Below, one piece after another: positions 802 to 35,927 of a stretch of 35,941 nt of DNA (the first letter of the stretch is position 1; every line of letters starts with the position of its first letter). The notes under the pieces are model-generated. The model searched no databases and was not told the origin of the DNA. It worked only from the letters and a program-made list of their open reading frames with translations. Source of the DNA: a virus (taxonomy: Duplodnaviria; Caudoviricetes); the IMG/VR virus record IMGVR_UViG_3300026016_000021, positions 1 through 35,941 of that record. The stretch is one strand, 5' to 3'. The position numbers and the translations under genes were made by a program.

Positions 802-832
802 CCGTCAGTAACCCCAACCCTCCCCCAAAGAT

Positions 833-1735
833 ATGCCCAATAGTTTAGGCGGAATTAACCTCGCGCAAATCGCCGAGGAAGGCCTGCGAGTCCTTTCCCC
901 GCGTCTGGCTCCGCTCCGGATGTTCACGCGGGACTTTTCGATGGACGTCAAGGAGAAGGGCGAAAGCGTGACCACGCGCATCGCCACTGACTTGGAAGCC
1001 GATGATGTTAGCGGCGGCTTCACCGCGTCCGATGCGACCAGCACGCCCTACCTCATCACGCTGGATCAGGAATTGGGTAAAGCCCATGCCTTCACGCAGG
1101 CCGAGATTTCTAAGGGCGGCATGGAGCTGATTCGCCGCACCTTCTTCAAATCGATGGGGAATGCGGTTGGCAAAGGCGTGACCAAAGCCCTGATCAATCT
1201 CGTCATCGAGGCCAATTTCGCCAATAAGACGGTCATCGCTTCCGCCGATTTCGACGCGGACGATTGCTCGGTGTTGGCTGAAGGGCTCGACACCCTCGAT
1301 GTGGACGATTCCGAGCGGTTCGGGCTGATCAAGCCCGCTTGGATGGGCGCCCTCTGCCGCGACAATGTCATCCAAGGCCAGAACACCTCCGGGAGCGACG
1401 AGGCCCTGCGCGAGAATCGAGTCCGCCGCGTCGCCGGCTTCGAGCTGATGCGCTATAACGGCTGGCCCACCACCGGCCAGACGACCGTCGAAGGCCTGAG
1501 CGGCTTTGTCGGCGCGCGCGAAGGCCTGCTCATCGCCGCGCGGCTGCCGGCGGTGCCCGATGAAGCGATGCAGGTCATGTATGCCCAAAACCTGGTGGAG
1601 CCCGAGAGCGGATTCCCCATTCAGTTCCAGGTCTTCTACGTTCCCAAAGAGCGCAAGTGGTATATGGCCATGGCCACCCTGTTCGGCGTGAAGGCCGGCC
1701 CAGGCAACAACATTTGGCGGATCACGACCGCCTAA
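833..1735 (+). CDS. Major capsid protein (HK97 fold)
   Basis: 300 aa; FTRDFS..GESVTTR, LDTLDV..ERFGLIKP, VAGFEL and LFGVKAG segments typical of coat proteins; position after scaffold. Confidence 0.85.
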   Translation: MPNSLGGINLAQIAEEGLRVLSPRLAPLRMFTRDFSMDVKEKGESVTTRIATDLEADDVSGGFTASDATSTPYLITLDQELGKAHAFTQAEISKGGMELIRRTFFKSMGNAVGKGVTKALINLVIEANFANKTVIASADFDADDCSVLAEGLDTLDVDDSERFGLIKPAWMGALCRDNVIQGQNTSGSDEALRENRVRRVAGFELMRYNGWPTTGQTTVEGLSGFVGAREGLLIAARLPAVPDEAMQVMYAQNLVEPESGFPIQFQVFYVPKERKWYMAMATLFGVKAGPGNNIWRITTA

Positions 1736-1770
1736 GCGATCGGGATTCCACCGGAAGCCACCGTCCCGAA

Positions 1771-2322
1771 ATGAACGAACCAATCAGCTTTGTCATCCGG
1801 CGCACCGCCAAAGGCGACATCACGACCGTCTATTGCGGCACCGACAATGTCGCGGCGGAAGAGGCCTACGACAAAGCGGTCGGCTCCCTCAAGGAGGGCG
1901 AGGGTCACGCGGCCATCTATAGGAATGCCAGGCCCACCAAACGACAATCGGCGCTGAAACGGAAGCCAATCAAGATCCACGATCACAGCGAGACCGATCG
2001 GAAGAAGCAACTGGCCGAACAGGCGGCCCGCCAGGCCGAAAGCTCCTCGGCAGCCGATAAGAATCCGATGGCCTGGCTCAAGGACGAACAGGCCAGTTCC
2101 GCCAAGAGGCAGCAAGCGCTCAAAGCAACCGAGCTCCAAAGCCGCCGGGCCCACTACAAGAAGGCCACATCTGGCGAAGGCGGCGCGGCTGATCCCATGG
2201 CCTGGCTTAAGGCCGAACAGGAAGATCACAAGAAGCGCGCGGAGGCCCGCAAAGCCAAGCCGACATCAGAATCCAAGCCCAAGAAATCGTCCGAGAAACC
2301 AGCCGACAAACCTGAGAAATGA
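1771..2322 (+). CDS. Hypothetical protein with duplicated PMAWLKxEQ motif and Lys-rich tail
   Basis: ATG 1771; stop overlaps the next ATG (ATGA). Confidence 0.7.
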   Translation: MNEPISFVIRRTAKGDITTVYCGTDNVAAEEAYDKAVGSLKEGEGHAAIYRNARPTKRQSALKRKPIKIHDHSETDRKKQLAEQAARQAESSSAADKNPMAWLKDEQASSAKRQQALKATELQSRRAHYKKATSGEGGAADPMAWLKAEQEDHKKRAEARKAKPTSESKPKKSSEKPADKPEK

Positions 2323-2966
2323 AAATCCATCGTCTCCTTTTTTTCCTTTGCGGAATTCTACTGTCAGCCTCGGCCGCCTCGGCCGCCACCGTGCCGGTCG
2401 CCCAAGGCAAATATTTCGCGGTGGGCGGCACCAGCGTCTCGACCAATGTCGCCTATGCGATCGCGCCGGGCGTCGGTGGCGTCGCGCGCATCGAGACCAT
2501 CATCGCCAAGGACGATTCCAGCGCCGGAACGCTCCGATTCTTCACGGCCGGGCCTCCCATCTACGTGACCAACAGCCTGGCGGCTGGGCTGTCCAACATT
2601 TTCCTCAATCCCGTCGGCACTGGCCTGACTAACGGCGATTCGCTTGTGATCCATAGCATCGCCAGCAATCTCTGGCAGCGCGTGCTGGTCGCGACCACCA
2701 ATTCAGCCGGCGTCCTCATTACCAATACGCTGAGCGCGGCGACGACGGCCTTCGCCTTGAGCCCCGGGGACACAGTCTATCGCATGAACCTGGCCGCCAG
2801 CGTGCTCATTGGCAACACCGCCACCACGCTCACCAGCGGCAATGGGGGCGCGGTTTGGTCCTCGCTCAACAACCGTCCAGCGCTGATTGAATTGGTGGCA
2901 CTCTCCGGCTCCACCACCAATCATGCATTGGCCATCAGCGGACTGATCGCTCGGGACGATCGGTAG
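2319..2966 (+). CDS. Signal-peptide protein, beta-rich, candidate head decoration protein
   Basis: MKIHRLLFFLCGILLSASAASA|ATV Sec-type leader; six TN dipeptides; last gene before a terminator in the capsid operon. Confidence 0.75.
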   Translation: MKIHRLLFFLCGILLSASAASAATVPVAQGKYFAVGGTSVSTNVAYAIAPGVGGVARIETIIAKDDSSAGTLRFFTAGPPIYVTNSLAAGLSNIFLNPVGTGLTNGDSLVIHSIASNLWQRVLVATTNSAGVLITNTLSAATTAFALSPGDTVYRMNLAASVLIGNTATTLTSGNGGAVWSSLNNRPALIELVALSGSTTNHALAISGLIARDDR

Positions 2967-2997
2967 CTTCCTCTTTAATCTCGTGATGCCTTGGATG

Positions 2998-3027
2998 GGC
3001 CCGGTCTTGGACCGGGCCTTTCCTTTT
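2998..3027 (+). terminator. Rho-independent terminator closing the capsid operon
   Basis: GGCCCGGTC-TTG-GACCGGGCC 9-bp stem followed by TTTCCTTTT. Confidence 0.75.
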
Positions 3028-3201
3028 GGACCGGCGACCGGCCGCCGGCGCCCGGCTTTGGGGATGCCGGCGCCGGCAAGAAGAAGGCCCGGCCACTCGC
3101 CGGCCCCTGCGCGGGGTGACTCCGGATCATTCGGCCGGGCCCGGCCGGAGCAGTTGGGCCCCAAGCAGGCCTCTCCGACCTAGACTCTGGAGCCTGGAGG
3201 T

Positions 3202-3693
3202 ATGACTACCAAGCAATTGAGCGCACTCATCGACGCCGGAGTGAAGCTCGACCAGGAAATCAAAGAGCGTCAGGATAAATTCGCCGTCCTCAAGGATCAG
3301 ATCCGAGCCTGCGCGGAGGCCGAATTGATCGAAGCGGGAACCGCCAAGCGGCCCGAGGAACTCAAAGGCCAGAATTGGTCCGCTCAAGGATCGGAGGGCA
3401 ACTGGGTCGATGTCTCCTGGCCCGAGGACAAGCTCATCAGCAGTTTTTTCTTTCGCGCCGATGGCGCGGCATTCCGCGCGAAGGATCGCGAGGTCATTCC
3501 GCTCGACGATATTCGCAAGCTCTCCGGAAATCATTTCGAGAAGCTCTTCGCCAAACAGTTCCGCCCAGCCAAGGCGTTCCGCGAATTGGCCGCCGTTCTC
3601 TTGGGCGACAAGGCGGGCGGCGCCTTGATCGCGGCGGTTTCCGAACCCAACTCCCCGCGCGTGGCGTTCAAGCTGAAATCTCCGGGATCGTGA
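3202..3693 (+). CDS. Hypothetical protein with N-terminal coiled coil
   Basis: GGAGG before ATG; GTGA overlap with the next gene. Confidence 0.75.
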   Translation: MTTKQLSALIDAGVKLDQEIKERQDKFAVLKDQIRACAEAELIEAGTAKRPEELKGQNWSAQGSEGNWVDVSWPEDKLISSFFFRADGAAFRAKDREVIPLDDIRKLSGNHFEKLFAKQFRPAKAFRELAAVLLGDKAGGALIAAVSEPNSPRVAFKLKSPGS

Positions 3694-4061
3694 TCAGGCG
3701 CAATCGCATCATGGCCGATCTCCAATTCATCGAGGCGGAGCTCGGGGGGCAGACCTTCATTTGGAAGGATCAGGAGTTCCCCTGCTCCCCCTCCTCGGCC
3801 GATGAGGGGGAGAGCATCGAGATCGGCGGTCGTTTGGTCCCCATCGACCTCAAGCTGATCGTCCGCTTGGAAACCTTTTTGGGCGAGATTCCGGATTTCG
3901 AGGTGAAAGAGGAGGAACTCAACGATCCCGATCTGCAGCGCCCGATCGCCGGCCAACATCTAGTGTTCCGAGGCGTCGAGCGGGAGATCGCCAGCGCCAA
4001 GCTTGGACCCTCCAGGGCGCACGTGGTTCTGGCCCTCACCGATCCCAATAACGCGCGATGA
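3690..4061 (+). CDS. Head-tail joining/head closure protein (gpFII-like)
   Basis: Small acidic beta-rich protein (RPIAGQHLVFRGVEREI); position; alternative start ATG 3711. Confidence 0.55.
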   Translation: MIRRNRIMADLQFIEAELGGQTFIWKDQEFPCSPSSADEGESIEIGGRLVPIDLKLIVRLETFLGEIPDFEVKEEELNDPDLQRPIAGQHLVFRGVEREIASAKLGPSRAHVVLALTDPNNAR

Positions 4062-4786
4062 AATCTCAACGTCTCACCACCCTGATCCTCCTGACGCTGC
4101 TACTCCCCGGCCGCGCCGCCGATGTCGTCATTAATTTTGGGGACTTTCAGCTCTCGACCAACGACCTGGCAGGCGCGAGCGTCAACGTCATCCCCACATC
4201 CACACCGAGCATTGCCAATGGGAAATTCGTCACGAGCGACCGCCGGAAGTTCGCCTGCGACGGCGCCGCCTCGCTGACTCTCTCCAACATTGTCTATGGG
4301 AGCTATACGATCCAAATCGAGGGGCCCTGGACGAAGACGGCCTTTGGCATCGTTGTTCCTGATACCAATATCACGCTCAACGCCACCTCGATTGTCTCCA
4401 GCGCGACCATCGTGCCAGGATCGACCGTCGCTTACACCCAAGTTGCCTCTGACGCGCGTTACGTTCCACTGACCAACGCTTGGTTCCTGTTCCGAACCGT
4501 CAGCGTCGAGGGCTCCCGCGATGTCGCGCTCAATGACCAGGTCAGCTTCATCGAGACCGATTCGGAGAACATCACCAACCGCCTCCCATCGGCGGTGGGC
4601 ATCGCCGGCAAAGTCTTCTGGTTCGTCGACAAGCACGGCCAGGCCTCCGTCAACCCCTTCCGGATCAAGGCCGATGGCATCGAGACCATCAATGGCGTCA
4701 ACGAGATCGCGATCAGCGACGATTACGCTTCGGTCGCGGTGATCAGCACCGGCTTGGCCTGGCGGATTCTGACCCAAGTCCCCTGA
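4058..4786 (+). CDS. Signal-peptide protein with C-terminal fibre/baseplate-type domain
   Basis: MKSQRLTTLILLTLLLPGRA|ADV leader; C-terminal LPSA..GKVFWFVD..G.A..N...ETING...W pattern resembles T4 gp9/gp10-like domains. Confidence 0.7.
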   Translation: MKSQRLTTLILLTLLLPGRAADVVINFGDFQLSTNDLAGASVNVIPTSTPSIANGKFVTSDRRKFACDGAASLTLSNIVYGSYTIQIEGPWTKTAFGIVVPDTNITLNATSIVSSATIVPGSTVAYTQVASDARYVPLTNAWFLFRTVSVEGSRDVALNDQVSFIETDSENITNRLPSAVGIAGKVFWFVDKHGQASVNPFRIKADGIETINGVNEIAISDDYASVAVISTGLAWRILTQVP

Positions 4787-4787
4787 T

Positions 4788-5414
4788 ATGGAACTCCATT
4801 TCGAATTGGATATGCGGGAGTTCAATCGCGCCATCGAAGAATATCTGGACGCGACCAAAAAGGACCTCGCTTACGTCTGCAACCGCCAGGCCGTCAATGT
4901 CGCCATCAAGGCCAAGCAGAACACGCCCTTGGCCGATCCCGATGCGATCGAGGCGGTCGGCCGGCGGGCCTGGTGGCCGAAATATATCTCCAAGCGGCTG
5001 GGCAAAACCTCCAAAGCCGGAAAGCGCAAAGCCAAAGGGCGAACGGGTTTTACCCGGGCAATGGCTCGACGAGCATCCCGGTCCTACCTCGCCTCGAGGA
5101 AGCGCCGGCGCGGCTTCATTGCCGCCGGCTGGAAGCGGGCCATCGCCATTCTCGCCGCCCACAAAGAGGCACTCAAAACTGGATTGCCGCTCATCGCCGA
5201 AGGACGGGCCGGCCGGATCTACGATCCGCCAGGCGATGCCATTCCCGCGATCCCCGGAGAAGTCGTCTTTGCTGAGATCATCAATCGGGCCAAGGCGGCC
5301 CGGCCGGTGGCGGGCATCGCATTGCAGCAGGGTATCTACGATGCCGGGGAGGACATGTTGACCTATATCCGGGAGCAGATGCAGCCAACCGCCGACCTCT
5401 ATAACGCCAAGTGA
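4788..5414 (+). CDS. Neck/tail completion protein (HK97 gp10-like), basic
   Basis: Arg/Lys-rich, GFIAAGW motif, position before tail terminator. Confidence 0.55.
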   Translation: MELHFELDMREFNRAIEEYLDATKKDLAYVCNRQAVNVAIKAKQNTPLADPDAIEAVGRRAWWPKYISKRLGKTSKAGKRKAKGRTGFTRAMARRASRSYLASRKRRRGFIAAGWKRAIAILAAHKEALKTGLPLIAEGRAGRIYDPPGDAIPAIPGEVVFAEIINRAKAARPVAGIALQQGIYDAGEDMLTYIREQMQPTADLYNAK

Positions 5415-5415
5415 A

Positions 5416-5604
5416 ATGAGCTCCAAAGAGCCACGGAATCCATTCGCCCTGAAGATCGTGCCGGCAACGCCGCCGGCGGGGAAGGTGCGGGTGCGGCTGA
5501 CCGCTGGCGGTGCCCATGGGGCGGCCGGCAAGGATGAGCTCGTCGACGTGGATCCAAACATGGCCAAACACCTCATCGCCAGCAAACTAGCCGTGCCAGC
5601 ATGA
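5416..5604 (+). CDS. Small hypothetical virion protein
   Basis: Tightly packed, ATGA overlap; VDVD..AKHLIASKLA pattern. Confidence 0.6.
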   Translation: MSSKEPRNPFALKIVPATPPAGKVRVRLTAGGAHGAAGKDELVDVDPNMAKHLIASKLAVPA

Positions 5605-6080
5605 GCAGCCTGGCCCAAAAGCTCGAGCAGGCCGTCATTGCCGTCCTCCAGGCCGATCCGGATGTCGCTGCGCTCGGCCGGAACATCTATCCGGCCCAAA
5701 GGAATGCCCAGCTTGTGCTCGATGCGATCATTGTGGCCGCGGATGAAAAGAGCGGACGGGAGGAACCGATCGGGCTCGGGAACTGGCACAAGCCCGTCTC
5801 CGTCGAGGTGCGCACCTCAAGCAGCCGCGCCGATCCCGCCGACCCCAACGAGGATCGGGGGCCGGTCCACGACGCCGCGGCCGAGGCGGTTGAGAAGGCC
5901 CTCTCCTCGACCAGCCTGGCCGCCGACCTCTCCGCCGCGGTCGCGGATTTCACGGCCTATGATCCGGTCTATGGGCGGACCAACGGCGGCCGGGCCGCCA
6001 GCGATCGCCAATTCCGGACCCGGTTCGAATTCATGGTCTTTTGCTGCGCGACGGACCTCTCATCACCACCTCCGCCATGA
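5601..6080 (+). CDS. Tail terminator-like protein
   Basis: LEQAVIAVLQADP..NIYP N-terminus; position before tail tube. Confidence 0.6.
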   Translation: MSSLAQKLEQAVIAVLQADPDVAALGRNIYPAQRNAQLVLDAIIVAADEKSGREEPIGLGNWHKPVSVEVRTSSSRADPADPNEDRGPVHDAAAEAVEKALSSTSLAADLSAAVADFTAYDPVYGRTNGGRAASDRQFRTRFEFMVFCCATDLSSPPPP

Positions 6081-6098
6081 CTCCAATCCGGAGAGGGT

Positions 6099-6542
6099 AT
6101 GGCAAGCGCGCAAAACGGCATCGCGGTGGTCTTTGGGTTCTCGGGCTTCGGCGTCCCTAGCGACGTTGCGATCAGCGGCGTGGGCAGCCTCTACCCGAAA
6201 AATTTCCGGTTCAATGACGAGTTCAAGTTGGACATGGTGCGCGATGGGGACAACGAGGTGACCACGCTCATTGCCTCCGGCAAGCTCTATCATGCCAGGC
6301 TCGAGTTCACCCCCCGCGCGGCGATCGGCACGAACACGATCGCCAATGCCAGGACCTCCCTTGCGCCGCCCAGCCCGTTGGCCGCTGTCGTTCTGGCCAA
6401 TTTCCCCTGGGTAACCGCCAACACTCTCAAATGGGCCTACACCGGGGGCTGGGGGATCGCTTTCGTCAATGATGGCGTCGCCACCTACGAGCTCAACATC
6501 ACCGCGCACGCCACCAACGATCTCTCCGCGCCGGTGACCTAG
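6099..6542 (+). CDS. Tail tube (major tail) protein
   Basis: 147 aa, beta-rich; position upstream of chaperone and tape measure; no sheath gene found. Confidence 0.6.
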   Translation: MASAQNGIAVVFGFSGFGVPSDVAISGVGSLYPKNFRFNDEFKLDMVRDGDNEVTTLIASGKLYHARLEFTPRAAIGTNTIANARTSLAPPSPLAAVVLANFPWVTANTLKWAYTGGWGIAFVNDGVATYELNITAHATNDLSAPVT

Positions 6543-6545
6543 CGC

Positions 6546-7250
6546 ATGGATGCCCTCCGGGAATACCTGGCGGCGGCCTTCCCGCCGCCGGCAGTGGTCC
6601 TGGGCCAGCAGCTCCAGCCCTTCAGCCTCGGCCATTACCTCCGCCTCCTTTCCACCGACAATTGGTTCAGCGGCCAATCAAAATCCTCCGAACCGGATCT
6701 GGGCGATCTGGTCCAAGCCGTCTGGATCTGTTGCCAGACCTGGGAGGAATGCGAGGCCGGTTGCGCGGACCCCAAACTGCCCGAGAAGCTCAAGATCTGG
6801 GGCCGAAGCATCCTCGGCGGGCGCCGGTGGTGGTCGCGCCGCCGCGGGTTCAACTTCTTCGCGGAGGCCGAGAAGTTGATCCGCTATATCCAGGCTGGGT
6901 CGACCTGCCCCAAGCTGACGGAGCCCAAGGGTGGGGAGACTGTTGGTGCGCCCTTCATCCAGCGCGTCCTCCTCCTCCTGCAGGCCGAGCTCGGCCACAG
7001 CCGCTTGGAGGCGCTGGACAAGCCCTGGGGCCTGGCCAAATGGGATTATTGGGCTTATTGGGAGGGCGAGGGCGCCTTGAGGATTCTGGATGCTGAGACC
7101 AATCCCCATCTGCAGATGATCGAGGAGATGGACCGGGCCATCGAACGAATCGTCGCGCGTGGGGAGACCATCAGCGTCGAGAAGCTCAGCGCGGAAATGT
7201 ATCCGAAAGGAGAAGAAGACAATGGCCTTCGACCTGAGAGCAAGAATTAG
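6546..7250 (+). CDS. Tail assembly chaperone-like protein
   Basis: Lies between tube and tape measure; LQPFSLGH motif. Confidence 0.5.
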   Translation: MDALREYLAAAFPPPAVVLGQQLQPFSLGHYLRLLSTDNWFSGQSKSSEPDLGDLVQAVWICCQTWEECEAGCADPKLPEKLKIWGRSILGGRRWWSRRRGFNFFAEAEKLIRYIQAGSTCPKLTEPKGGETVGAPFIQRVLLLLQAELGHSRLEALDKPWGLAKWDYWAYWEGEGALRILDAETNPHLQMIEEMDRAIERIVARGETISVEKLSAEMYPKGEEDNGLRPESKN

Positions 7251-8535
7251 CCTCGATTCCACTCAGTTCACTTATGGGATGAACGCCACGCGCGCCCAAG
7301 CGGCCGCTTGGGGACGCGAGATCGAGAAGGTTAACAAGCAGGCGTCGGAGAGGTCCCAACTGGCTTGGGGCAGCGCGTTCGCGGGAATTAGTGCCGCCGC
7401 CGGATTAGCTCTTCATCAGATTCAGAGCGCCATTAAGGAAGCCGGGGATACGGCGGACATGGCCAACAAAATTGGAGTCTCGACGGATTTCCTCCAGAAA
7501 TGGGGTTATGCGGCAAAGCAGAGCGGCGCCAATGTTGAGAACATCATCAAGGCCGTGCAGAACTTAGCCGTGGCGATGGAGGAGGCAAAGGCCGGCACGG
7601 CTGAATATGTGGCCGCTTTCGAAGCTATCGGCATCAGCGTTGACGAGCTGAAGGGAAAGAATGTTGAGCAGGTCTTCGATGAGATCTCGAAAGCGATGGC
7701 TGCACACAAAGTCGATCCGGCGATGATCGCGGACATGCAGAAGCTTTTCGGCAAATCCGGCAAGGACCTCATCCCTACTCTGCGCGATCGCCCAACGGTT
7801 GAGGAAGGAGCTCGGCTGAGCAACAACGAGGATGTAATTGGTATCCTTAAGGCCGCCTCAGATCAGGAGACAAAGCTCGGGCAAATATTTCGGAAGCTAC
7901 GCGGCGAAGCTGTCGCCGGCCTTTTGAGGGCCAATCCGATAACGGGAAGTCTCCTATTGAGCGGGGCCGCCGAGGCCAAACGAAGACGCGAGCGGGACAA
8001 GGATCTGCCCGCAATCGAAAGCCAAGCCCTTCAGACCGAAATCGAGAAGCGGAAGAAAGAGGAGGAGAAGCGCCAGATGGAGGAGCTGGCCAAAACACGA
8101 GAGAAACTGACTGAACAGATGGCTAAGGAAAAGGACAGCATCCGCGACCTCAATTATCAGCATGCCGATAGCGCTGGAAAGATCGCCCTGTTAAAGAAGG
8201 AGATCGCCGACCTGCTCGATCAGGCTCGCAAGCTTGGGTTCGGGGATCCATCGAAGGAGCTGGAGGCCTCCAAGCTGCGAGAGCAAGCCAATAGAAAGCA
8301 GATCGAGATTGACCAGCTCGAGGAAAAGCAATTTCAGGAGAAGGGGCATCGGCTGAACCTACTGAAGAGCGCCATCAATTCCGATCCGCTCACCTCGATC
8401 GGTAACTTCCTCGGCAGCGATCCCGCGCGGAGCAATGACAAGCTGACGAGCATGTCGAGCGACATCCAAGCGATCCGCCGGCTGATCGAGCGGGTGGGAT
8501 CCTCGCCTTCCTCCTTCGAGCTTTTTCCTTTCTAG
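7222..8535 (+). CDS. Tape measure protein (short, about 437 aa)
   Basis: DLRARISLDSTQF start; DMANKIGVSTDFLQKWGYAAKQSG and KLFGKSGKDLIP tape-measure motifs; helical. Confidence 0.85.
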   Translation: MAFDLRARISLDSTQFTYGMNATRAQAAAWGREIEKVNKQASERSQLAWGSAFAGISAAAGLALHQIQSAIKEAGDTADMANKIGVSTDFLQKWGYAAKQSGANVENIIKAVQNLAVAMEEAKAGTAEYVAAFEAIGISVDELKGKNVEQVFDEISKAMAAHKVDPAMIADMQKLFGKSGKDLIPTLRDRPTVEEGARLSNNEDVIGILKAASDQETKLGQIFRKLRGEAVAGLLRANPITGSLLLSGAAEAKRRRERDKDLPAIESQALQTEIEKRKKEEEKRQMEELAKTREKLTEQMAKEKDSIRDLNYQHADSAGKIALLKKEIADLLDQARKLGFGDPSKELEASKLREQANRKQIEIDQLEEKQFQEKGHRLNLLKSAINSDPLTSIGNFLGSDPARSNDKLTSMSSDIQAIRRLIERVGSSPSSFELFPF

Positions 8536-8538
8536 ATC

Positions 8539-9273
8539 ATGGCCAGCAAAGCCACAGGCTCGAACAATATCACGCTGCGGGTCGCCCGCGGCGGTAAACG
8601 GAATCTGGGCGGGTTCTACCGTGAGGAGGTCTATGAGGGGACGCGCCAATCGGTGGAGACCGCCTATGGCTTCTTCGTCGGGATCGGCGCCGCCGATGTG
8701 TTCATTGAGCATGACGGCCCGCTTTGGCGGCTGATCGTCCGCCGCGAGGACCAATCGCCGGCGGGATTCCCGGTGCAGACCGGCACGCGCCTGCAGAATC
8801 AGCGGGTGCAAAAGAGCATCTTCGAGCCTCCCGGGCCCAACAACATTTCCGACCAGGAACTTCGGGACATCCAGAAGTTCATCGACAACCCTGACAGCGA
8901 CATCCTGCCGGAGGATTTTCTCAGCGACGATGCCTATTACCTCTACAGCTTGGCTCTGCGCGGTGTGACCAGCCGGCCCGTCGAGCAGCCCTGGTTGATC
9001 AAGACCGTCACCCAACTCAACACCAGGTCATTCCTTTTAAGCTTCACGAACGTTGGAAGAATCTTCTCGACGGCCAGCGTCATTGCCGACGCCGGCGTGG
9101 CAAACGTCCTGCGATTCGGATTGCCAGCGGACGTCAGTAACCGGATCGGCTTCGAATTCGGCTGGCTCAAGCATGGGGCGGAAGTGGAACCGGGGCCCGG
9201 CAACCTGCATGTCGCTACCCAATCCTACGAATACGGCTTTTGGTCCACCTTCCTCTTTGGAGATCTGTTATGA
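8539..9273 (+). CDS. Tail tip/distal tail protein
   Basis: Directly follows the tape measure gene; function inferred from position only. Confidence 0.5.
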   Translation: MASKATGSNNITLRVARGGKRNLGGFYREEVYEGTRQSVETAYGFFVGIGAADVFIEHDGPLWRLIVRREDQSPAGFPVQTGTRLQNQRVQKSIFEPPGPNNISDQELRDIQKFIDNPDSDILPEDFLSDDAYYLYSLALRGVTSRPVEQPWLIKTVTQLNTRSFLLSFTNVGRIFSTASVIADAGVANVLRFGLPADVSNRIGFEFGWLKHGAEVEPGPGNLHVATQSYEYGFWSTFLFGDLL

Positions 9274-9836
9274 GAGTCCCTCGGGTCTTTGGCCGCAATC
9301 CCCAATCCAACTGGCTCTCGCGGTTGTGGGACCAAATCCAGGCCAATGCCCTGGTCGATGGGCCGGGCTACCGGCTGAACCGCGGCCGGCGCGGGACGGT
9401 CCTGATTCTGTTGCCCGGCCGCAAGGGGGGCAGCCCCGCCTCACCTATCGAGCAATTCCGCTACAAATCGATGAAGGGCGATTACCTGGTTTGTCGGACG
9501 TGGGATGGAACGACGGAGGGCTCGAGCGACATCTATATCGCCAAGCCTGAGACGCTGCGAAAGACCGGTTGGCATGGAGCGGACGTTACCTACACGATCG
9601 AATCGACTGCCCAACAGATCACGGTCCATTACAATTACGTCTCCAACAGCTATCGGGTGGCCACAAGCGCGGGCATCAGTGAGCACCAGGAGATCGTCCC
9701 CCGTTATCGCGCTGATTCCTCCATCATTTACGCGGTTGAGGTCGAGGGCCTTGGAATCATGACCGAGGGCGCCGATCCCATGCCGGTCGGGAAGTTGGAC
9801 CTCAACGCCGATGGCCGGCAATTCGCCAGGACCTGA
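9270..9836 (+). CDS. Putative tail tip protein
   Basis: ATGA overlap; DYLVCRTWDG..IAKP..LR and DLNADGRQF motifs. Confidence 0.5.
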   Translation: MRVPRVFGRNPQSNWLSRLWDQIQANALVDGPGYRLNRGRRGTVLILLPGRKGGSPASPIEQFRYKSMKGDYLVCRTWDGTTEGSSDIYIAKPETLRKTGWHGADVTYTIESTAQQITVHYNYVSNSYRVATSAGISEHQEIVPRYRADSSIIYAVEVEGLGIMTEGADPMPVGKLDLNADGRQFART

Positions 9837-9845
9837 TCCGACGTC

Positions 9846-10709
9846 ATGCCCAATTTGGCCAGCTTCGAGAGCAGCGCCCTGCTGGGCTTTACCCAATCTC
9901 CCTTGGTGGCCCGCAACCGGGCCAGCGAGGTCTCAACGCTGGGATTGGCAGCTCTTTTTGTCGAGGAGCAGATCGCTGAAAAGGCCCCGCTCATTGCCGC
10001 GCATGGGGGGCACGCCGACATCTTGTCCCGGATGATTGAGGCCGAACTGGACGCGCGCAACTCCGCGTCTATCCATGGCTTCGCTGGCCCCTCGCCTCTC
10101 ATGTCGCTGGTGACGACCCGCAATCAAACAGCGGCCAACTATGAGGCGTTGGGCGGGTCTTTCGGATGGCCGCCGCCGATCTACGACAGCGGGAATGGGC
10201 GGATCTCATGGAGCGGAGGCCTGCAGGGCGTGCAATGGAATTTCCTGGAGGCCGCCCCCGAAAATTATCTGTATGATTTGGGCGGCGCACCGGTCAATCC
10301 CACTCCGGTGCTCGGACGGGATGGTGCCTTCAGCGTCCGCGCTTTCGCCTTTTGGGGCCATACCACTCGGCTCCTCGCCGGCGTCAGTCTTCAATCCTGG
10401 ATCGGCGTGGTCTGCGCCGGTTTCGCCGGAGCCCGGACGCCTGGCTATCTGGTCGTCATCGATGTCACCGACCGTTACCCGGCCGTGGCGGCGGCCGATA
10501 ACATCGAAAAGTGGATGGGATTGTCGGGTGGATTCTACGGCCAGCCCGTGGTGGTTGGGGCCCGGCGGTGGATTCTGGAGCGCGGCGCCTTCGAATTTGG
10601 GCCCTACGCGCCCGATCAATCCCGGGTCTACCTGTCAGTCTTTTTGCGGGACGCCGTGGATCAGCCCCTCCTGAATTTCCTGGGGGCCGCCACCGCCCCC
10701 CAGCTTTGA
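9846..10709 (+). CDS. Hypothetical tail-region protein
   Basis: Long ORF co-oriented within the tail operon. Confidence 0.6.
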   Translation: MPNLASFESSALLGFTQSPLVARNRASEVSTLGLAALFVEEQIAEKAPLIAAHGGHADILSRMIEAELDARNSASIHGFAGPSPLMSLVTTRNQTAANYEALGGSFGWPPPIYDSGNGRISWSGGLQGVQWNFLEAAPENYLYDLGGAPVNPTPVLGRDGAFSVRAFAFWGHTTRLLAGVSLQSWIGVVCAGFAGARTPGYLVVIDVTDRYPAVAAADNIEKWMGLSGGFYGQPVVVGARRWILERGAFEFGPYAPDQSRVYLSVFLRDAVDQPLLNFLGAATAPQL

Positions 10710-10728
10710 CTGGCCGAGCAGCTCAAGA

Positions 10729-11322
10729 ATGTCGCTCCTCAAACTGGTCTATGACATCACGACGAAGAATCTGATCCGGGATCAAAATCTCTCGGGAATC
10801 TTCGAGCTGCCCCCCCTGCAGCAGCGCGACCAGGTCCCGATCGATTTCCGCGTTGTGCGTCAGATCAGCTGGAGCGAGGCTCCGTTCTACGAGGCCATCA
10901 ATCTTTCAGGCGTGGCGCTGCGGATTTCCATTGGCAGCGCCGGCACTGTCGATGCCAGCGCCACGGCCTGGACCGAGGTCAACGGGGGCGAATCCTTGAG
11001 CGGCGTGCTCGATCTGGCAACCGCCTCCCTCAACGCGCTGACGGCCGACACCACGCGGCAATTCGAGGTGCAGATCACCGGCGCCGCCGGCGGCCCCTAC
11101 TCCGGCCGTTATGCATGCACGATCCGGACGGCCGTCTATGTCGCCGCCAACGAGGTTCCGGTGCCGACCGGAACGCCCATTTCCCGCGAGGAAGCGATCG
11201 CGCTCTTCATGCAGCGCAACGCGGTGCGGAGTTTTGTCGCCTACAGCGTCCCCAATGGCACCAAACAGTTCCTCTGTTACTTGCGGGATGATGGCTCCCT
11301 GGCGGCCGATCCGCTCAATTGA
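10729..11322 (+). CDS. Baseplate-upper/fibre adaptor-like protein
   Basis: Ig-like beta pattern (LRISIG..SGVLDLAT..FEVQIT) just upstream of the fibre gene; no signal peptide. Confidence 0.5.
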   Translation: MSLLKLVYDITTKNLIRDQNLSGIFELPPLQQRDQVPIDFRVVRQISWSEAPFYEAINLSGVALRISIGSAGTVDASATAWTEVNGGESLSGVLDLATASLNALTADTTRQFEVQITGAAGGPYSGRYACTIRTAVYVAANEVPVPTGTPISREEAIALFMQRNAVRSFVAYSVPNGTKQFLCYLRDDGSLAADPLN

Positions 11323-11324
11323 TC

Positions 11325-13271
11325 ATGAAGAAACTCCTGCAGATCGCCCTCTTTTGCGCAGCCGCGTTCACGGCCCGAGGCGCGGACATCATCACCGCGA
11401 CGATCACCCTGACCAACGTGCCGGCGACGGCCGACACGATCGACGACACCTCGACCCGGACCTTCACCAACAATGTCAGCGCGTCGCCGGGAACTCTCAT
11501 CCTGGCCACCAACACGATCCCTTACAGCGCGACCAACATCTGGCTTCATCTGGCGACCTACCCGTTCCGGCCGGCGGACTTCGTTCAGATCACCAGCCCG
11601 AGCAATGTGACGATCACCGCTTTCCCCGGCCAATTCCCGGATGTCACCCTTTCGGCCGGGTGGGGGACTGTGACCTGGTCGACCAACGCAACCCATACCA
11701 ACACCTGGGTCGTGCGGGTGCCCTACATCGTCGAAGCGGCGACCAATCAGACGAACATCGCGTCTCTTTTGGTCTCTTACATCTCCGACAAATCGAGCAA
11801 CGCGATCGCAACCGGGGCGACCGCGCTCTCCAACTTCGTCTCGGTCGCCGCCAATCAGACCGTCACCGGCAACAAAACCCTGACCGGCACCACCACGATT
11901 TACACGCTCAATGCCACCAACGGCTGGCTCATCGCGATGTCCGGCATCTCTGGCTATGTGGTCGCGCTGACCAACGGCGTTTATTCCGGCCCGACGATCG
12001 TCGATGGCCTGATCAGCAACATCATTGCGAATGACCTGGTCGTGACGAACCTCTCCGCCCCCGGCTCCGGGTCGGATTCCTTCCAGGTCGGGAGCGGCGC
12101 TGACGCCAGCGGAGACCAATCCGTCGCGGTGGGCGTTTTCACCATTGCCTCAGGCGGGAATAGCGTCGCACTTGGCTATAACGCGGGAGCCACCAAAGCT
12201 GGCGCGGTTGCCTTGGGTTCCGGATCCGCCGCAATCCATACCAATGCGGTGGCGATCGGATTCTTCGCGAACACGACTACCAATGATCAGATTGCACTCG
12301 GAGGGACCGCGGCAAGTTCGGTCCGGATCGTTGGAGCTCTGGACGTGGCCAACATCCGCAATGCAAAATTCGCGGGCTCGGTGACCAACCAGGCCAGGAC
12401 CTCCTTTCCGGGCCTGGTCTTCACCACGCTCGGGGATGGCAACAACCTGGCGGTGGATTTCGGATCCAATTACTGGGTCCGGATCGAGGGGACAATCACG
12501 GCCGACGCGACGATCTGCGGCCTGGCTGGCGGCTATTCTGGCCTCACTTTCGAGGTCTACAACGGGACCGCTTACAACATCATTTGGGCACAGAATACCT
12601 TGGATCCGACGCCCGCCAACCGGATCGTCACCCGGGACGGCTCGGACCTGACAATGGCGACCAAGGGGACCGTGACCATCCGGTGGAGCAGCACCGATTC
12701 CCGGTGGCATGTCCTGGCTTCCTATCCAACGCTGACCTCGGCCACCAACGCCCTCCCCTATAACGACGCGAACGCCACGAATTTCAACGCTTGGGCCAAC
12801 GCCGCGGATAAGGTCCCGATCACCGCCCGGGGGCTCAGCGGCAGCACCAACGCGACTTTCCGCGTGCTCGATGCCGCCGGCGCGCTCGTCTCCGAAATCG
12901 CGAGCAATGGCAGTCTCCTGATCGGACGCGGGCTCGCTCTGCAGTCGAGCAACCTGGTCGCGCACAGTTCATCGACCAATTACGTCCCCGACTTCGTGAT
13001 GGCCGAAGCCGATCTGGAGGCCTCGACGGGCATCCTGAACTTTCTGATATCGACCAATCGCCCGCTAAGCGGCGTTGGGCGCGTGCGCCGCTGGAGCGTG
13101 ACCATCTGGTCGGGGAATACCAACCGACATCTGGGATTCAATACCTCCTGGTCTTTTTTGGGGGCGCCGGCCCCGACGCTCCTTGCCAGCAACAAATGGG
13201 CGGTGCTCTCCCTCCGGTGCAACGGGTCGAGCGAGACCAACGTTTTGGCCGCCTGGTCAGTCACGCCATGA
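11325..13271 (+). CDS. Tail fibre/adhesin with YadA-head-like repeats and a signal peptide
   Basis: MKKLLQIALFCAAAFTARG|ADI leader; ASGDQSVAVG/ASGGNSVALG/GAVALG/NAVAIG repeats; QTVTGNKTLTG; about 21 TN dipeptides. Confidence 0.8.
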   Translation: MKKLLQIALFCAAAFTARGADIITATITLTNVPATADTIDDTSTRTFTNNVSASPGTLILATNTIPYSATNIWLHLATYPFRPADFVQITSPSNVTITAFPGQFPDVTLSAGWGTVTWSTNATHTNTWVVRVPYIVEAATNQTNIASLLVSYISDKSSNAIATGATALSNFVSVAANQTVTGNKTLTGTTTIYTLNATNGWLIAMSGISGYVVALTNGVYSGPTIVDGLISNIIANDLVVTNLSAPGSGSDSFQVGSGADASGDQSVAVGVFTIASGGNSVALGYNAGATKAGAVALGSGSAAIHTNAVAIGFFANTTTNDQIALGGTAASSVRIVGALDVANIRNAKFAGSVTNQARTSFPGLVFTTLGDGNNLAVDFGSNYWVRIEGTITADATICGLAGGYSGLTFEVYNGTAYNIIWAQNTLDPTPANRIVTRDGSDLTMATKGTVTIRWSSTDSRWHVLASYPTLTSATNALPYNDANATNFNAWANAADKVPITARGLSGSTNATFRVLDAAGALVSEIASNGSLLIGRGLALQSSNLVAHSSSTNYVPDFVMAEADLEASTGILNFLISTNRPLSGVGRVRRWSVTIWSGNTNRHLGFNTSWSFLGAPAPTLLASNKWAVLSLRCNGSSETNVLAAWSVTP

Positions 13272-14158
13272 AATGGTCGCTCGTTATTCTCTTGGGCCTG
13301 CTGGTTCGCGCGGCGCCGGCGCAGACCGCCTTCGGGGATCCCGCCTTTCTCTCCCGGACCTTCATTTATCCCGCCAACTGTGTGACGGGCGCCTTGGATG
13401 GCTGGAGCTGCGTCCGAAACATCCGGGCCGAATATCAAGGCGCCCTCATTCGCGTGCGGCGCGGGAGCGACTCGACCGAGCAGGACATCTATGCCCTGGC
13501 CGGGGCGCTGGACACCGCGACCATCGCGAGCTTTTGCGGGACCTCGACGGGATACGTCACCACGATTTACGCGCAGCTGGGAACCAACAACATCAAGCAG
13601 GCGACCGCGGCCAACCAGCCGCAGATTTACAACGGCTCGGCCATCTTCATCGCGACCAACGGAAATCGCCGGCCGATGATCAAGTGGGACAACGTCAACG
13701 ACTACATGCAAGCCGTGAGAAACACCGCTTGGGTCCAGCCGATCTCCGCCTACCATGTGATCCAGCAGACCTCCTGGACGTTGGGCGATCCGCTCATCGA
13801 TGGATCGACCACGGCCACTTTCTTTGTCAATGATCAGCGCGACTCCTCGAGCCGGATCCGGCTCTACGCCAACACGGCCCTGCAACCGACAACCAGCTTT
13901 ACTCTGGGTGTGCCCATCCTTCTCTACGAGGTCGGCAACAACACCGCCAGCGTGATCGGATTCAACAATCAGGTGGCCGAAACGAGCGGCACGGCCGGAG
14001 CGGCCAATCCCGAGGGCATTACTTTGGGCGCGTTCTCTAACGGGACCGTGCCGGCGGATCTGATGTGGCAGGAATCGATCATCTATGGCACCGCCCATGA
14101 CGCGGCGACTCGTCAACGCCTCAGAGAGCTCATCAATGCGTTCTATCATTTGTTTTAG
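13268..14158 (+). CDS. Exported arabinofuranosidase-B-catalytic/LamG-like receptor-binding protein
   Basis: MKWSLVILLGLLVRAAPA|QTA leader; YQGALIRVRRGSDSTEQDI, GYVTTIY and QATAANQPQI motifs. Confidence 0.7.
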   Translation: MKWSLVILLGLLVRAAPAQTAFGDPAFLSRTFIYPANCVTGALDGWSCVRNIRAEYQGALIRVRRGSDSTEQDIYALAGALDTATIASFCGTSTGYVTTIYAQLGTNNIKQATAANQPQIYNGSAIFIATNGNRRPMIKWDNVNDYMQAVRNTAWVQPISAYHVIQQTSWTLGDPLIDGSTTATFFVNDQRDSSSRIRLYANTALQPTTSFTLGVPILLYEVGNNTASVIGFNNQVAETSGTAGAANPEGITLGAFSNGTVPADLMWQESIIYGTAHDAATRQRLRELINAFYHLF

Positions 14159-14492
14159 CTTCCTGGCTTTCGCGATCGCGATCGCGGCCGAGGATTTCCT
14201 GGTGCTCGATGGGTTCCGATCCGAGGATGCGGCCAAGGCCCGCAGTGCGGCCGCCATGGCCGCCGAACAGACCCAAAAGACCCGTGATGACCCCAAGACC
14301 ATCACGCGATATCTCTGGGAGCGGCGGCAGGATCAGGCCGACACCAACAATTGGGCTCTCCTGATTCCAGCGACCGAGACCAACAAGCTCGCGACCGGCG
14401 AACGGCTGGTCCTCAAGCCACGCGGGACCAATTGGACCGATAAACTTCCGGAGGTCCTGGAGCCCGCCATCAAGCAGCTTCGGCCCAATTGA
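14136..14492 (+). CDS. Small signal-peptide protein
   Basis: MRSIICFSFLAFAIAIAA|EDF leader; three TN dipeptides; start overlaps the upstream gene end. Confidence 0.6.
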   Translation: MRSIICFSFLAFAIAIAAEDFLVLDGFRSEDAAKARSAAAMAAEQTQKTRDDPKTITRYLWERRQDQADTNNWALLIPATETNKLATGERLVLKPRGTNWTDKLPEVLEPAIKQLRPN

Positions 14493-14514
14493 CTCGGGGC
14501 GCAGTCGCGCGCCA

Positions 14515-14697
14515 GTGAAACTGTGGAGTGACATCGCCAAGGTGGTGGGGCCCGGTGCCGGCGTCTTGGGCCTGGTCAATCTTCTGGAGCTCAAGACCTG
14601 GCTCGAGCTCCTCCTGCTTTGCCTGACGATCCTCTACACGGCCATCAAGATCGTCTCCGCCGCGCGGAGACGGAAAGGAAAGCATGCTGAGCGGTAA
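14515..14697 (+). CDS. Holin-like membrane protein
   Basis: Hydrophobic helices, ILYTAIKI, basic C-terminus RRRKGK. Confidence 0.6.
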   Translation: MKLWSDIAKVVGPGAGVLGLVNLLELKTWLELLLLCLTILYTAIKIVSAARRRKGKHAER

Positions 14698-14857
14698 AAA
14701 GACCTACCTGGTGGGGATCTGGATGATCATCCAAGCCATCGTGCCGGCCCTGATCGATCGCGATGTGTCGAAAGTCGATTGGGTCGGGGTGCAGGGCGGT
14801 TTCGGCCTTATTTTCCTGCGGCAAGGGGTCGCCAAGACGGCCGAGCCCAAAAGTTGA
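14684..14857 (+). CDS. Second holin-like membrane protein (57 aa, not in the ORF track)
   Basis: Manual translation MLSGKKTYLVGIWMIIQAIVPALIDRDVSKVDWVGVQGGFGLIFLRQGVAKTAEPKS; GAAAGGA before ATG. Confidence 0.7.
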   Translation: MLSGKKTYLVGIWMIIQAIVPALIDRDVSKVDWVGVQGGFGLIFLRQGVAKTAEPKS

Positions 14858-24694: not shown

Positions 24695-24925
24695 ATGCGC
24701 CCGAAACTCAAAGAAGGAGTCAAAACCAATCTTTACTTGGACGTTCAGACTAAACGAGATCTGCAATGGCTTGCCGTCTATTATCGAAAGCGGAGCATGG
24801 CGGAGATGGTCGAGGATCTCATTGCAGAGGAGATGGCGAAGCCGGAAGTAATTGCCGAGCTCAGTGATGAAGAGAAAAAGGTCCGGCGGCGTGGCGCGCA
24901 TAAATCTCCCACCCGCAGACGATGA
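24695..24925 (+). CDS. Ribbon-helix-helix regulator, repressor-position
   Basis: GVKTNLYLD..KRDLQWLA...KRSMAEMVEDLI. Confidence 0.8.
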   Translation: MRPKLKEGVKTNLYLDVQTKRDLQWLAVYYRKRSMAEMVEDLIAEEMAKPEVIAELSDEEKKVRRRGAHKSPTRRR

Positions 24926-24929
24926 GGCC

Positions 24930-26168
24930 GTGAGTAAGCGCCAAACGGTCAAAGTCGGGTCGGTTGCGATTAGGATTTATGCAACTCCCACGCGAAGGGG
25001 ACGCAAATCCTATTCGGCCTGGACACTCTGCCACTACTTCGGCGGAGCGAGGATTCGGCAAAAATTTTCGGACCTAGCGCGCGCCAAAACCCAAGCAGAA
25101 GCGGTCGCAACGAGATTAGCCAATGGAGAGACCGAGGCCCTATCAATGCGAGCAGCCGATGCTCAGGCTTGGGGGAGAATTATCGAGCTCCTGCGGCCCT
25201 GGAAAAAATCTCCCGAACTGGCCATCGCCGAATACATTGCAATTCTGGAAAGCCTTGGGGGAGCCTGCACCCCAGCTGACGCCGTGGCGTTCTGGCGCGC
25301 TCGGCATCCCGTGGGTCTTAGCGGTCGGAACATTCCGGAATTGGTTGAGGCTTTCGTCGCCGCCAAGAAGTCGGATGGATTATCGGTCAGGCATCTCAAA
25401 GATTTGCAGGGCCGCCTCGGGGCCTTTGCGAAGAAATTCACCGGCCCTGCCAGCGCTCTTGCTCCTCCCGAGGTGGACAATTGGCTTAGGACCGGGCAAT
25501 GGGGGCTGCGTAGCCGCAACAATTATCGCTGCGCCCTGCTGACCTTTGTCCGATGGTGCAAGGCTCGACATCACCTGCCTGTGGATTGGGAGCTATCCTC
25601 GGCCCGCGCAAAGCTTCCTCCCACCGATCCGAAACTTTTCGAGCCTGGTGAACTCGCCAGGCTCCTCGAGGCCTGCCCCGATCGATTGCTGCCGTTCCTA
25701 GCGATCTCTGCTTTCGCTGGCTTGCGGCATGCCGAGCTCAATGGCCCCAAAGGTCGCCTCAACTGGTCCGCGATCGATTGGGAAGCGAAAACCATCTATG
25801 TGGGCGCCAATCTCGCGAAGACATCGGCGCATCGGATTGTCCCAATGACCCCGAACTTGGAAGCTTGGTTGAAGCCATTCGCCAAAATCGATGGCCCCAT
25901 CTGCACAATCGCGAACACCAGCAAGGCGATCAACCATCTGGCGAAGGCGGTAGGGATCATTTGGCGTCGGAATGCCCTCCGAAAGTCCTTCATTAGTTAT
26001 CGGCTGGCAATCACCCAAAACATCGCGCAAGTGGCCGAGGAAGCCGGGAATAGCCCAGCCAAGATCCTCAGCAATTATCGACGGCCAATCCAGCGCTCGC
26101 AGGCGGAACGCTGGTTTGCGATCTCGCCCGCACCACTGCAAAACGTTCATCAATTGAAGCTGCTATGA
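24930..26168 (+). CDS. int: Tyrosine integrase
   Basis: FAGLRHAEL, AKT, NALRKSFISY, EAGNS and SNY; GTG start 4 nt after the repressor stop; attP nearby. Confidence 0.92.
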   Translation: MSKRQTVKVGSVAIRIYATPTRRGRKSYSAWTLCHYFGGARIRQKFSDLARAKTQAEAVATRLANGETEALSMRAADAQAWGRIIELLRPWKKSPELAIAEYIAILESLGGACTPADAVAFWRARHPVGLSGRNIPELVEAFVAAKKSDGLSVRHLKDLQGRLGAFAKKFTGPASALAPPEVDNWLRTGQWGLRSRNNYRCALLTFVRWCKARHHLPVDWELSSARAKLPPTDPKLFEPGELARLLEACPDRLLPFLAISAFAGLRHAELNGPKGRLNWSAIDWEAKTIYVGANLAKTSAHRIVPMTPNLEAWLKPFAKIDGPICTIANTSKAINHLAKAVGIIWRRNALRKSFISYRLAITQNIAQVAEEAGNSPAKILSNYRRPIQRSQAERWFAISPAPLQNVHQLKLL

Positions 26169-30825: not shown

Positions 30826-30828
30826 GGG

Positions 30829-32424: not shown

Positions 32425-32427
32425 GGG

Positions 32428-32922
32428 TCAGCTGCGCCGTTCCCACTGATTGGTTGCGATGCCTGAGACGGGCGGCCCTGGAATCCCGTTGGTGGTGATG
32501 TAGGGATTATGGCCCCACTGATTGGTGCTGATCTGAATAGTTTGGGGCGCAGCCTCCGTGAGAAGCCGGTTTAGGAAAGCCTCCAATTGAGCGAGCTTGC
32601 CCGGATCGAGGAGCTTAATCCGCTCCCCCAGGGCGCTGACATTCTCCTCGGCGCGCCACTTCTCCCAACTGCGCTCATAATGCGCGAAGATCGGATCGGT
32701 GAGCCGCCGATAGATTTCCGGGACCGAATAATTGGGCGGCATGGGGCCCGGCGCCGCAGGCAACGAGAATCGGACCACGACCAGGTTGGTCCAGGCCTCG
32801 AGGGCTTGGGGTTGGATCCAGACGGTTACCGCGATCGGCGGCGCTGGAAGGGGCGGCAATGCCGGCGCTTGGGCCCGCGCCAGAGACCCGAGCAAAAGGA
32901 TGATGAGGAAACCGGCCCGCAT
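32428..32922 (-). CDS. Signal-peptide, Pro-rich protein
   Basis: MRAGFLIILLLGSLARA|QAP leader; four TN dipeptides. Confidence 0.65.
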   Translation of the reverse strand: MRAGFLIILLLGSLARAQAPALPPLPAPPIAVTVWIQPQALEAWTNLVVVRFSLPAAPGPMPPNYSVPEIYRRLTDPIFAHYERSWEKWRAEENVSALGERIKLLDPGKLAQLEAFLNRLLTEAAPQTIQISTNQWGHNPYITTNGIPGPPVSGIATNQWERRS

Positions 32923-32939
32923 GATAGCGGGGGCCAGAG

Positions 32940-33188
32940 TCAAATGAACTCCTGGACGGTGCGGTGGACCCGGCGGACGTCTCGCGCCGGGTAATCGTTT
33001 GGCCAGCGGCGGTTGAGCTCCTTCAGGATCAGTTCCACGCGGCGTTCGGGAGAGAGCTGCACGCTGTGCGTCGCGCCGGCGTCGCCCTCGTTCCACCCCG
33101 TGATGGAGGTTCCGCCGGCCAGCTGCTGCTGGGCCTCGGCCAGCCACTGCTCGAGATTGGCCCTGGTCGCTCCGAAGAATGGATTCAT
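32940..33188 (-). CDS. Head-tail adaptor (gpW-like)
   Basis: 82 aa helix-hairpin-helix between terL and portal. Confidence 0.6.
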   Translation of the reverse strand: MNPFFGATRANLEQWLAEAQQQLAGGTSITGWNEGDAGATHSVQLSPERRVELILKELNRRWPNDYPARDVRRVHRTVQEFI

Positions 33189-33436: not shown

Positions 33437-33454
33437 GACGAGGTCGATGGCCAG

Positions 33455-35913: not shown

Positions 35914-35927
35914 GGTCAACCACCGCG

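Follow-up and report, generated by a model that had tools for sequence, protein, structure and literature searches.

Tailed phages are taken to complete their assembly in the cytoplasm, so what are the fibre genes of a tailed phage doing with export signals? The question is raised by a 35,941-base viral contig (Duplodnaviria; Caudoviricetes; record IMGVR_UViG_3300026016_000021), in which genes for a predicted tail fibre, a lectin-like protein and a protein encoded just after the capsid begin with leaders of the kind that direct proteins through the Sec pathway. The whole contig is called the window below, and its genes are named by the coordinate of their start. A preliminary description of this DNA had listed seven leader-bearing genes, five in the left arm (2319, 4058, 11325, 13268 and 14136) and two among the packaging genes (32922 and 33436), and had proposed that they encode exported virion parts. 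The reading that we prefer, to which we give a probability of about 0.55, is that the fibre, lectin and post-capsid proteins would be exported by Sec, fold and perhaps become modified in the periplasm, and dock on the particle at lysis.

Export leaders on late genes

The leaders were scored with a tripartite heuristic of our own (a basic n-region, a hydrophobic h-region and small residues at −3 and −1) rather than with SignalP, and this heuristic does not tell signal peptides from signal anchors. Nine of the 242 open reading frames (ORFs) of at least 60 residues on both strands pass: the seven genes listed above and two antisense shadows, 7506 and 21764, both on the minus strand. When the count is limited to the late genes, 8 of 29 pass, the eighth being a membrane protein of holin type encoded near 14684. 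The controls behave differently, as none of 78 capsid homologues and none of the 74 core-protein Met positions passes, while shuffled versions of each of the seven proteins pass 6–36 times in 500. Lambda Lom passes the test; lambda J and orf-401 fail it.

All seven genes were found to open with an ATG followed by a basic, hydrophobic and small-residue leader, as first described, and the next in-frame Met lies 41–205 residues downstream or does not exist. The five left-arm genes had also been called translationally coupled, and their junctions bear this out: 2319, 4058 and 13268 each start in an ATGA stop/start overlap, 11325 follows a gap of 2 nucleotides, and 14136 overlaps its neighbor by 23 nucleotides. 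The capsid, portal, tube, tape measure and tip proteins are leaderless, which agrees with the same description, and so is the adaptor 10729 that precedes the fibre gene.

Conservation of the leaders in related phages

A search with 11325 returned 26 matches: the protein itself, 19 family members, and six proteins that match only through YadA repeats at 12–25% coverage. The last six, three of which pass the leader test, were left out of the family count. The leader is found in 18 of the 19 members, two of them from an internal Met, and in the single failure it is visible behind a start that is probably mis-called. In the 2319 family, 84 of 96 representatives pass. Inspection of the 12 failures by eye gave six truncated or short-started sequences, two borderline leaders, one read-through that carries its leader internally, and three apparently full-length leaderless members (P0147, P0202 and P0203, with starts called from the protein sequence alone). 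These three nest among leader-bearing members in a quick tree that omits six truncated or fused rows; since only 8 of its 88 branches are starred, no direction of leader change can be drawn from it. The leaders are thus kept in homologues, a check that had been suggested at the outset. The predicted leader is confirmed as a real and conserved feature, and export of the proteins that bear it is strongly supported, because the feature is conserved though the leader sequences differ.

The related contig G001 is colinear with the window, with a capsid identity of 67%. Its homologue of 2319 keeps both the leader and the slot after the capsid gene, and its leaderless adaptor is followed by five consecutive leader-bearing genes, including homologues of 11325 and 4058. 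The fifth of them (L092:12382-15411) encodes 1009 residues with beta-helix, FN3-like and lectin-like parts, is poor in Thr-Asn dipeptides, and closes the fibre cluster. Another locus, L014 (L014:8915-13782), has a different capsid type followed by four consecutive leader-like genes, for a fibre, a LamG lectin, a beta-helix protein and an FN3-like protein, two of them flagged by script and two read by eye. The different capsid of L014 suggests that the leader trait may go with the host and not with the head module.

The predicted trait is patchy among relatives. G002, with a capsid identity of 50%, has a leaderless fusion of adaptor and fibre. The Verrucomicrobia phage P8625 (NC_029047), the sole cultured relative by capsid, resembles the window in gene order, in a fibre with YadA-like repeats (gp22, a weak match) and in a lectin in the same slot (gp24), but differs in that its fibres are leaderless and have no Thr-Asn excess. 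Its published description gives a signal peptide for none of the 52 proteins (PMC4642752). Among 80 portal-related loci a passing ORF was present in five, namely the window's own DNA, G001, L014 and two spurious-looking cases. Thirteen of 72 further capsid loci have passing ORFs, none of which belongs to the window's exported families and all of which look spurious bar one lipoprotein. These loci serve as only a partial negative control, since many of them stop before the fibre slot.

Fibre domains divided between two genes

Profile comparisons indicate that 10729 and 11325 between them carry the two end domains that related phages have on a single leaderless fibre chain. In L141, L143 and L145, adaptor and tip are joined in one leaderless chain of about 301 residues in the same slot (two types, 97% and 67% identity). 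Residues 4–163 of 10729 align with residues 5–174 of the L141 fusion (hhalign 92%, E = 6.8e-7), and the 11325 family at residues 381–468 aligns with residues 213–301 of that fusion (hhalign 98.6%, E = 1.3e-15). 10729 also resembles the N-terminus of the G002 fibre, which is leaderless (28%, E = 5e-6). The fusion differs from the window's pair in being one cytoplasmic chain with 0–1 Thr-Asn dipeptides and in lacking a stalk, a YadA head and the extra N-domain. Longer or fused forms of 10729 itself number 0 among 5074 candidates, which is weak evidence.

The identification of 11325 as a fibre draws on its position directly after the tail-tip and adaptor genes, common to the window and G001, and on its YadA head repeats (PF05658, E = 8e-11, 42.4 bits against a cut-off of 25). 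Its structural model is only partly confident (pLDDT 65) and ends in a beta-sandwich-like domain of modest confidence; the structures that it matches are autotransporter heads, CBA120 TSP4, the spike of a capsid and fibres of many uncultured phages. The N-domain gave no alignment to P8625 gp22 or to the G002 fibre and no usable Atlas match. Where 11325 departs from siphophage side fibres is in having a leader instead of leaderless, cytoplasmic synthesis. It had been claimed that the genome holds no leaderless alternative fibre. This stands insofar as a fibre profile matches 11325 alone among the 242 ORFs, but it is weakened by the leaderless 9270 and 9846 in the tip slot, a slot that holds central tail proteins of 690–1007 residues in relatives.

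Gene 2319 had been assigned a decoration slot, and its post-capsid position, common to the window and G001, agrees with this. Its model (pLDDT 88.7) is a beta-sandwich with an inserted domain that resembles the tail tube of phage Mystique (9n71, E = 2e-4); Foldseek probabilities of 0.97–1.0 were also obtained for tail parts of JBD30, T1 and Chi, with a whole-chain TM of at most 0.35. Compared with known decoration folds, only the inserted domain matches, to tail-tube and tip projections, and the look-alike structure clusters are 74–100% viral. In P0155, judged by eye, the small upstream protein is run into the 2319-type protein. The other slot assignment, that of 4058 as a neck fibre, is not supported, because its leader-bearing homologue (44% over the N-domain) lies in the fibre cluster of G001. 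The C-domain of 4058 is weakly like the T4 gp9/10-type baseplate proteins (phrog_20556, E = 1.4e-4), and its N-domain has no detectable relation to that of 10729. A likeness of the N-domain to that of lambda Stf was considered and rejected (hhalign 0.2% to the orf-401 N-domain, in a two-sequence alignment; no match to PF08400 or elsewhere in Pfam).

The lectin-like 13268 is homologous to leaderless proteins of cultured phages, S-CBS4 gp059, Lucky10 gp27 and Bolt007 gp33, with 35–44% identity over 80–100 residues; the virion or minor tail role of these proteins is a database annotation. Among cultured phages no match was found for 2319, 10729 or 14136. Taken over the whole set, the claim of exported virion parts has homology behind it for the virion identity of 11325, 13268 and 2319.

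A Thr-Asn excess in the exported proteins

The exported proteins share a bias in composition. The six that are not lipoproteins hold 40 Thr-Asn dipeptides against 12.8 expected (z = 8.2; none of 1000 shuffles reaches 40), with 21 in 11325 and six in 2319, where all six Asn residues fall in predicted loops. The reverse dipeptide, Asn-Thr, is at chance in the same proteins (11 vs. 12.9), and the 20 core proteins have 6 Thr-Asn against 8.0 expected. The exported and core proteins of G001 give 45 vs. 15.4 and 7 vs. 10.8, respectively, and four leaderless proteins from fibre slots give 14 vs. 14.8. Thr-Asn is the top dipeptide in both the 11325 and the 2319 families (388 vs. 129 and 418 vs. 135), and the leaderless P0147, P0202 and P0203 have 0, 1 and 0. 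This bias, confined to exported proteins, points to a predicted modification by the host. Disulphide bonds do not explain the export: the mature chains contain 0, 1, 2, 3, 0 and 0 cysteines, the 2319 family has no bias toward even numbers, and folding driven by disulphides was rejected.

A proposed route to the particle

How might such proteins reach the virion? The proposed route starts from the division already described, with the core proteins and the adaptor predicted to stay in the cytoplasm and 2319, 4058, 11325, 13268 and 14136 predicted to leave it; homology indicates that the fibre itself would be split between the cytoplasmic 10729 and the leader-bearing 11325. Going by the known biology of Sec and signal peptidase I, the leader-bearing proteins would be exported and cleaved near ASA/ATV, GRA/ADV, ARG/ADI and APA/QTA, the slash marking the cut. 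They would then fold and trimerise in the periplasm, as YadA-type heads do after Sec export in autotransporters, and modification by the host at the loop Thr-Asn sites may be the reason for the detour. The exported parts would be added to the particle once the inner membrane has failed: the holin-like 14515 and 14684 would open the membrane, 11325 would bind the trimer of 10729, 2319 would bind the surface of the head or the tail, and 4058 and 13268 would add further arms. A fuller version can be drawn, a two-compartment assembly in which the split fibre, the lectin and the decoration protein pass through Sec, a periplasmic enzyme of the host modifies them at the Thr-Asn signal, and the parts are clipped on at lysis to give a virion dressed in host-type modifications. 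We offer this version tentatively, and would sooner expect some part of it to fail than all of it to hold.

A number of observations weigh against the proposed route. Export, cleavage and presence in the virion are all predictions from sequence, and 14136, 32922 and 33436 show neither a virion-type domain nor other evidence of a virion role. Since the tip domain is mobile, the fusion in L141 and its relatives is evidence of shared parts rather than of binding. The leaderless 9270 and 9846 may supply the central tip, in which case the role of the exported parts may be an accessory one, like that of the side fibres of lambda. Leader-bearing proteins of G001 (the one of 1009 residues) and L014 (553 residues) resemble ordinary secreted enzymes. 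The Thr-Asn rule is not simple either: the leader-bearing P0159 has no Thr-Asn, the 1009-residue protein of G001 is low in it, and the shared tip domain lacks the excess (22 vs. 18.2). In the window, classical N-x-S/T sequons show no enrichment (24 vs. 21.9), and they were rejected as the reason for export; the fibre family has 206 vs. 220 and the 2319 family 265 vs. 221, with sequons other than those with Thr-Asn depleted in the latter. Family searches recognised no glycosyltransferase in the window, and any modifying enzyme would therefore be the host's. That host is probably verrucomicrobial, an assignment based on relatedness to P8625 (capsid 33%, portal 30%, terminase 24%). Lastly, the integrase-like gene 24852 suggests a temperate phage, and display of these proteins by a lysogen is possible.

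Alternative explanations

Such display is the rival that survives best, though we consider it unlikely. The proteins would be domesticated fibres on the envelope of a lysogen or an infected cell, acting in adhesion or in blocking superinfection, and the particle would attach by means of 9270 and 9846. Besides the integrase-like gene, it has a parallel in lambda lom, a leader-bearing gene that sits within the tail operon between J and the side-fibre gene and whose product is an outer-membrane protein, not a virion part. The best Protein Data Bank matches of the 11325 model are trimeric autotransporter heads (E about 1e-3 to 1e-2), and 11325 shares YadA head repeats, a Sec leader and a structural match with autotransporters such as YadA, EibD and BpaC; the lipoprotein 33436 could act as an anchor. 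A further parallel comes from the MAT fibres of Bdellovibrio bacteriovorus, which are described as phage-fibre-like trimers on the predator's surface, with a signal peptide, a conserved beta-rich N-domain and variable tips (PMC10769870). The MAT fibres are, however, encoded by chromosomal predator genes outside any virion operon and are displayed on the cell, and they are likened to the window's proteins by description, not by sequence. Unlike the autotransporters, 11325 has no membrane-anchor barrel family and ends in the beta-sandwich-like domain; no YadA anchor or stalk family was found in Pfam at E up to 0.05, and no membrane barrel or lipobox is seen on any of the five left-arm proteins. 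The leader genes are interleaved with virion genes and overlap them rather than being gathered in a cassette, and their GC content is like the remainder. Against display there are also a tipless adaptor kept directly before the exported fibre, and a 2319 kept in the post-capsid slot, in both the window and G001.

It is quite improbable that the proteins are soluble factors, periplasmic or released, that serve as receptor decoys, loosen the envelope or help lysis and never bind the particle stably. Family searches recognised no endolysin among the proteins of this apparently complete genome, which has only the two holin-like genes 14515 and 14684 and the lipoprotein 33436; relatives have enzyme-like exported proteins and, among the late genes of G001 and L014, an alpha/beta hydrolase; and the N-terminal region of 13268 is glycosidase-like. 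Yet 11325 and 4058 retain a fibre architecture of neck helix, stalk and tip domain, cultured phages encode homologues of 13268 that lack a leader and carry tail or virion annotations, and structure comparisons gave 2319 no catalytic likeness.

A little less probable still is a tether, in which uncleaved or slowly cleaved leaders would keep the appendages on the inner membrane, on its cytoplasmic side, and particles would collect them before lysis, with no translocation at all. The topological problem of bringing exported parts to a cytoplasmic particle would disappear, the heuristic does not separate a signal peptide from an anchor, and the cysteine counts offer no reason for export through disulphides. 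Against the tether, about 100 homologues have short hydrophobic cores ending in A-x-A-type sites, leaders of this kind with a positive N-terminus are established to send the rest of the chain outward, and the Thr-Asn excess tracks the leader. That the leaders are an artefact of mis-called starts or assembly errors, with true proteins beginning past the hydrophobic stretch, has next to no probability: a GTG at codon 25 of 2319 and the few clear ribosome-binding sites in the genome would permit it, but conservation in homologues largely refutes it, three starts share an ATGA with the stop codon of the gene before, and over 10600–14600 the contigs of all four other runs agree wherever they cover the region, with no differences listed.

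The genome, its neighbors and its probable host

The contig bears a 14-base terminal repeat, which makes the window circular and probably complete; its families include a GpA-type terminase, a lambda-type portal, an S49 protease, a major capsid protein and a tape measure protein. Taken together it is probably a complete, circular, temperate, lambda-like phage. Table 1 gives the features discussed in this work.

Table 1. Features of the window, in order of position, with the basis of each assignment.
Feature	Coordinates	Strand	Basis or remark
Major capsid protein, leaderless	833..1735	+	phrog_283, E 3.8e-20; 33% to P8625 gp11
Small basic post-capsid protein, leaderless	1771..2322	+	stop overlaps 2319 start (ATGA)
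Leader and two-domain beta protein, predicted capsid or tail decoration	2319..2966	+	homologues, model
Terminator-like 10-bp hairpin and T-run	2997..3029	+	closes the scaffold-capsid-1771-2319 unit
Leader, conserved N-domain, short neck helix and C-domain; fibre-like accessory	4058..4786	+	G001 homologue, phrog_20556
Probable tail tube protein, 147 residues, leaderless	6099..6542	+	position; 59% to G001
Tape measure protein, leaderless	7222..8535	+	phrog_8462, E 3e-18
Three leaderless tail-tip-slot genes (8539, 9270, 9846)	8539..10709	+	synteny with G001, L141, L145
Leaderless fibre adaptor	10729..11322	+	anchor domain, neck helix, short C-terminal hairpin; no receptor-type tip
Predicted exported distal tail fibre	11325..13271	+	leader and N-domain, then stalk, YadA head repeats, tip (about 365–470) and C-extension
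Leader and lectin-like (arabinofuranosidase-B-like) domain, predicted receptor-binding protein	13268..14158	+	PF09206, E 1e-10
Leader and 100-residue mature chain	14136..14492	+	overlaps 13268 end
Two small hydrophobic holin-like genes (14515, 14684)	14515..14857	+	hydrophobicity; putative function
Tyrosine integrase-like gene	24852..26168	+	PF00589, E 5.7e-5, under curated cut-off
Leader and Pro-rich 147-residue chain, upstream of portal gene	32428..32922	−	4 Thr-Asn
Predicted lipoprotein directly after large terminase	33185..33436	−	lipobox

Several of these assignments have no family behind them. The name of tail tube for 6099 is deduced, as the protein has no family match; profile searches gave no clear family for 8539, 9270 or 9846; family searches gave no match for 14515 or 14684, and no family or phage match was found for 14136. 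Homologues of 32922 were absent from the 80 portal loci except in the window's own DNA. The slot of 33436 after the large terminase is occupied in G001 by a lipoprotein of unrelated sequence, and the same is seen on comparing L003:5725-6036 with 33185-33436 of the window; the post-terminase lipoprotein is possibly an outer-membrane lysis helper or an exclusion protein. A DUF6745 protein is encoded at 16298-17368 on the minus strand; Ser-Val-Arg-Asp/Ala units make up a long low-complexity repeat in its interior. The terminator-like sites of the window (19 vs. 14.0 ± 4.2) are not clearly above chance, and a scan for promoters, with 1 found against 2.8 expected, carried no information.

The packaging genes (29974-35941, minus strand) oppose the head-tail genes (265-14857, plus strand), whereas in G001 all are colinear on one strand. 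The switch would be an inversion between the protease and scaffold genes, natural or made in assembly.

The phage is listed in 11 runs, all of them wetland metagenomes, seven of which have at least half of the sampled words; one of the 11 may be the window's own source, and no RNA run is among them. Five of the eight scans of viral contigs were without a match. The twin of G001 (L010 / G003), a complete phage contig, sits in a Pyrinomonadaceae bin. In that bin 11 leader-bearing ORFs from 15 stretches are poor in Thr-Asn (2 vs. 12.1, a small sample). Pyrinomonadaceae were discounted as host on the basis of these sampled secreted proteins, and the twin is probably mis-binned. Secreted proteins of the Pedosphaerales are probably rich in Thr-Asn.

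What the finding would mean

Virion proteins with Sec leaders are familiar from the filamentous phage Ff, whose pIII and pVIII stay anchored in the membrane and are added during extrusion, without lysis. A literature search, covering titles and the openings of abstracts and with subscription journals mostly outside its scope, found no account of Sec-exported tailed-phage fibres or of a Thr-Asn signal. What this genome contributes is the comparison with a leaderless fusion and the absence of paired cysteines in the exported chains. The split of adaptor and fibre, together with the fusion as a natural leaderless control, makes a two-protein test possible without a cultured host. P0147, P0202 and P0203, with their 0–1 Thr-Asn, are natural leaderless controls as well, if their starts are correct, and the Thr-Asn bias names candidate sites for modification by the host. 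If the proposed route is true, the annotation of signal-peptide genes in phage late operons would change, and the assembly of tailed phages would gain a second compartment, with maturation in the periplasm and attachment at lysis.

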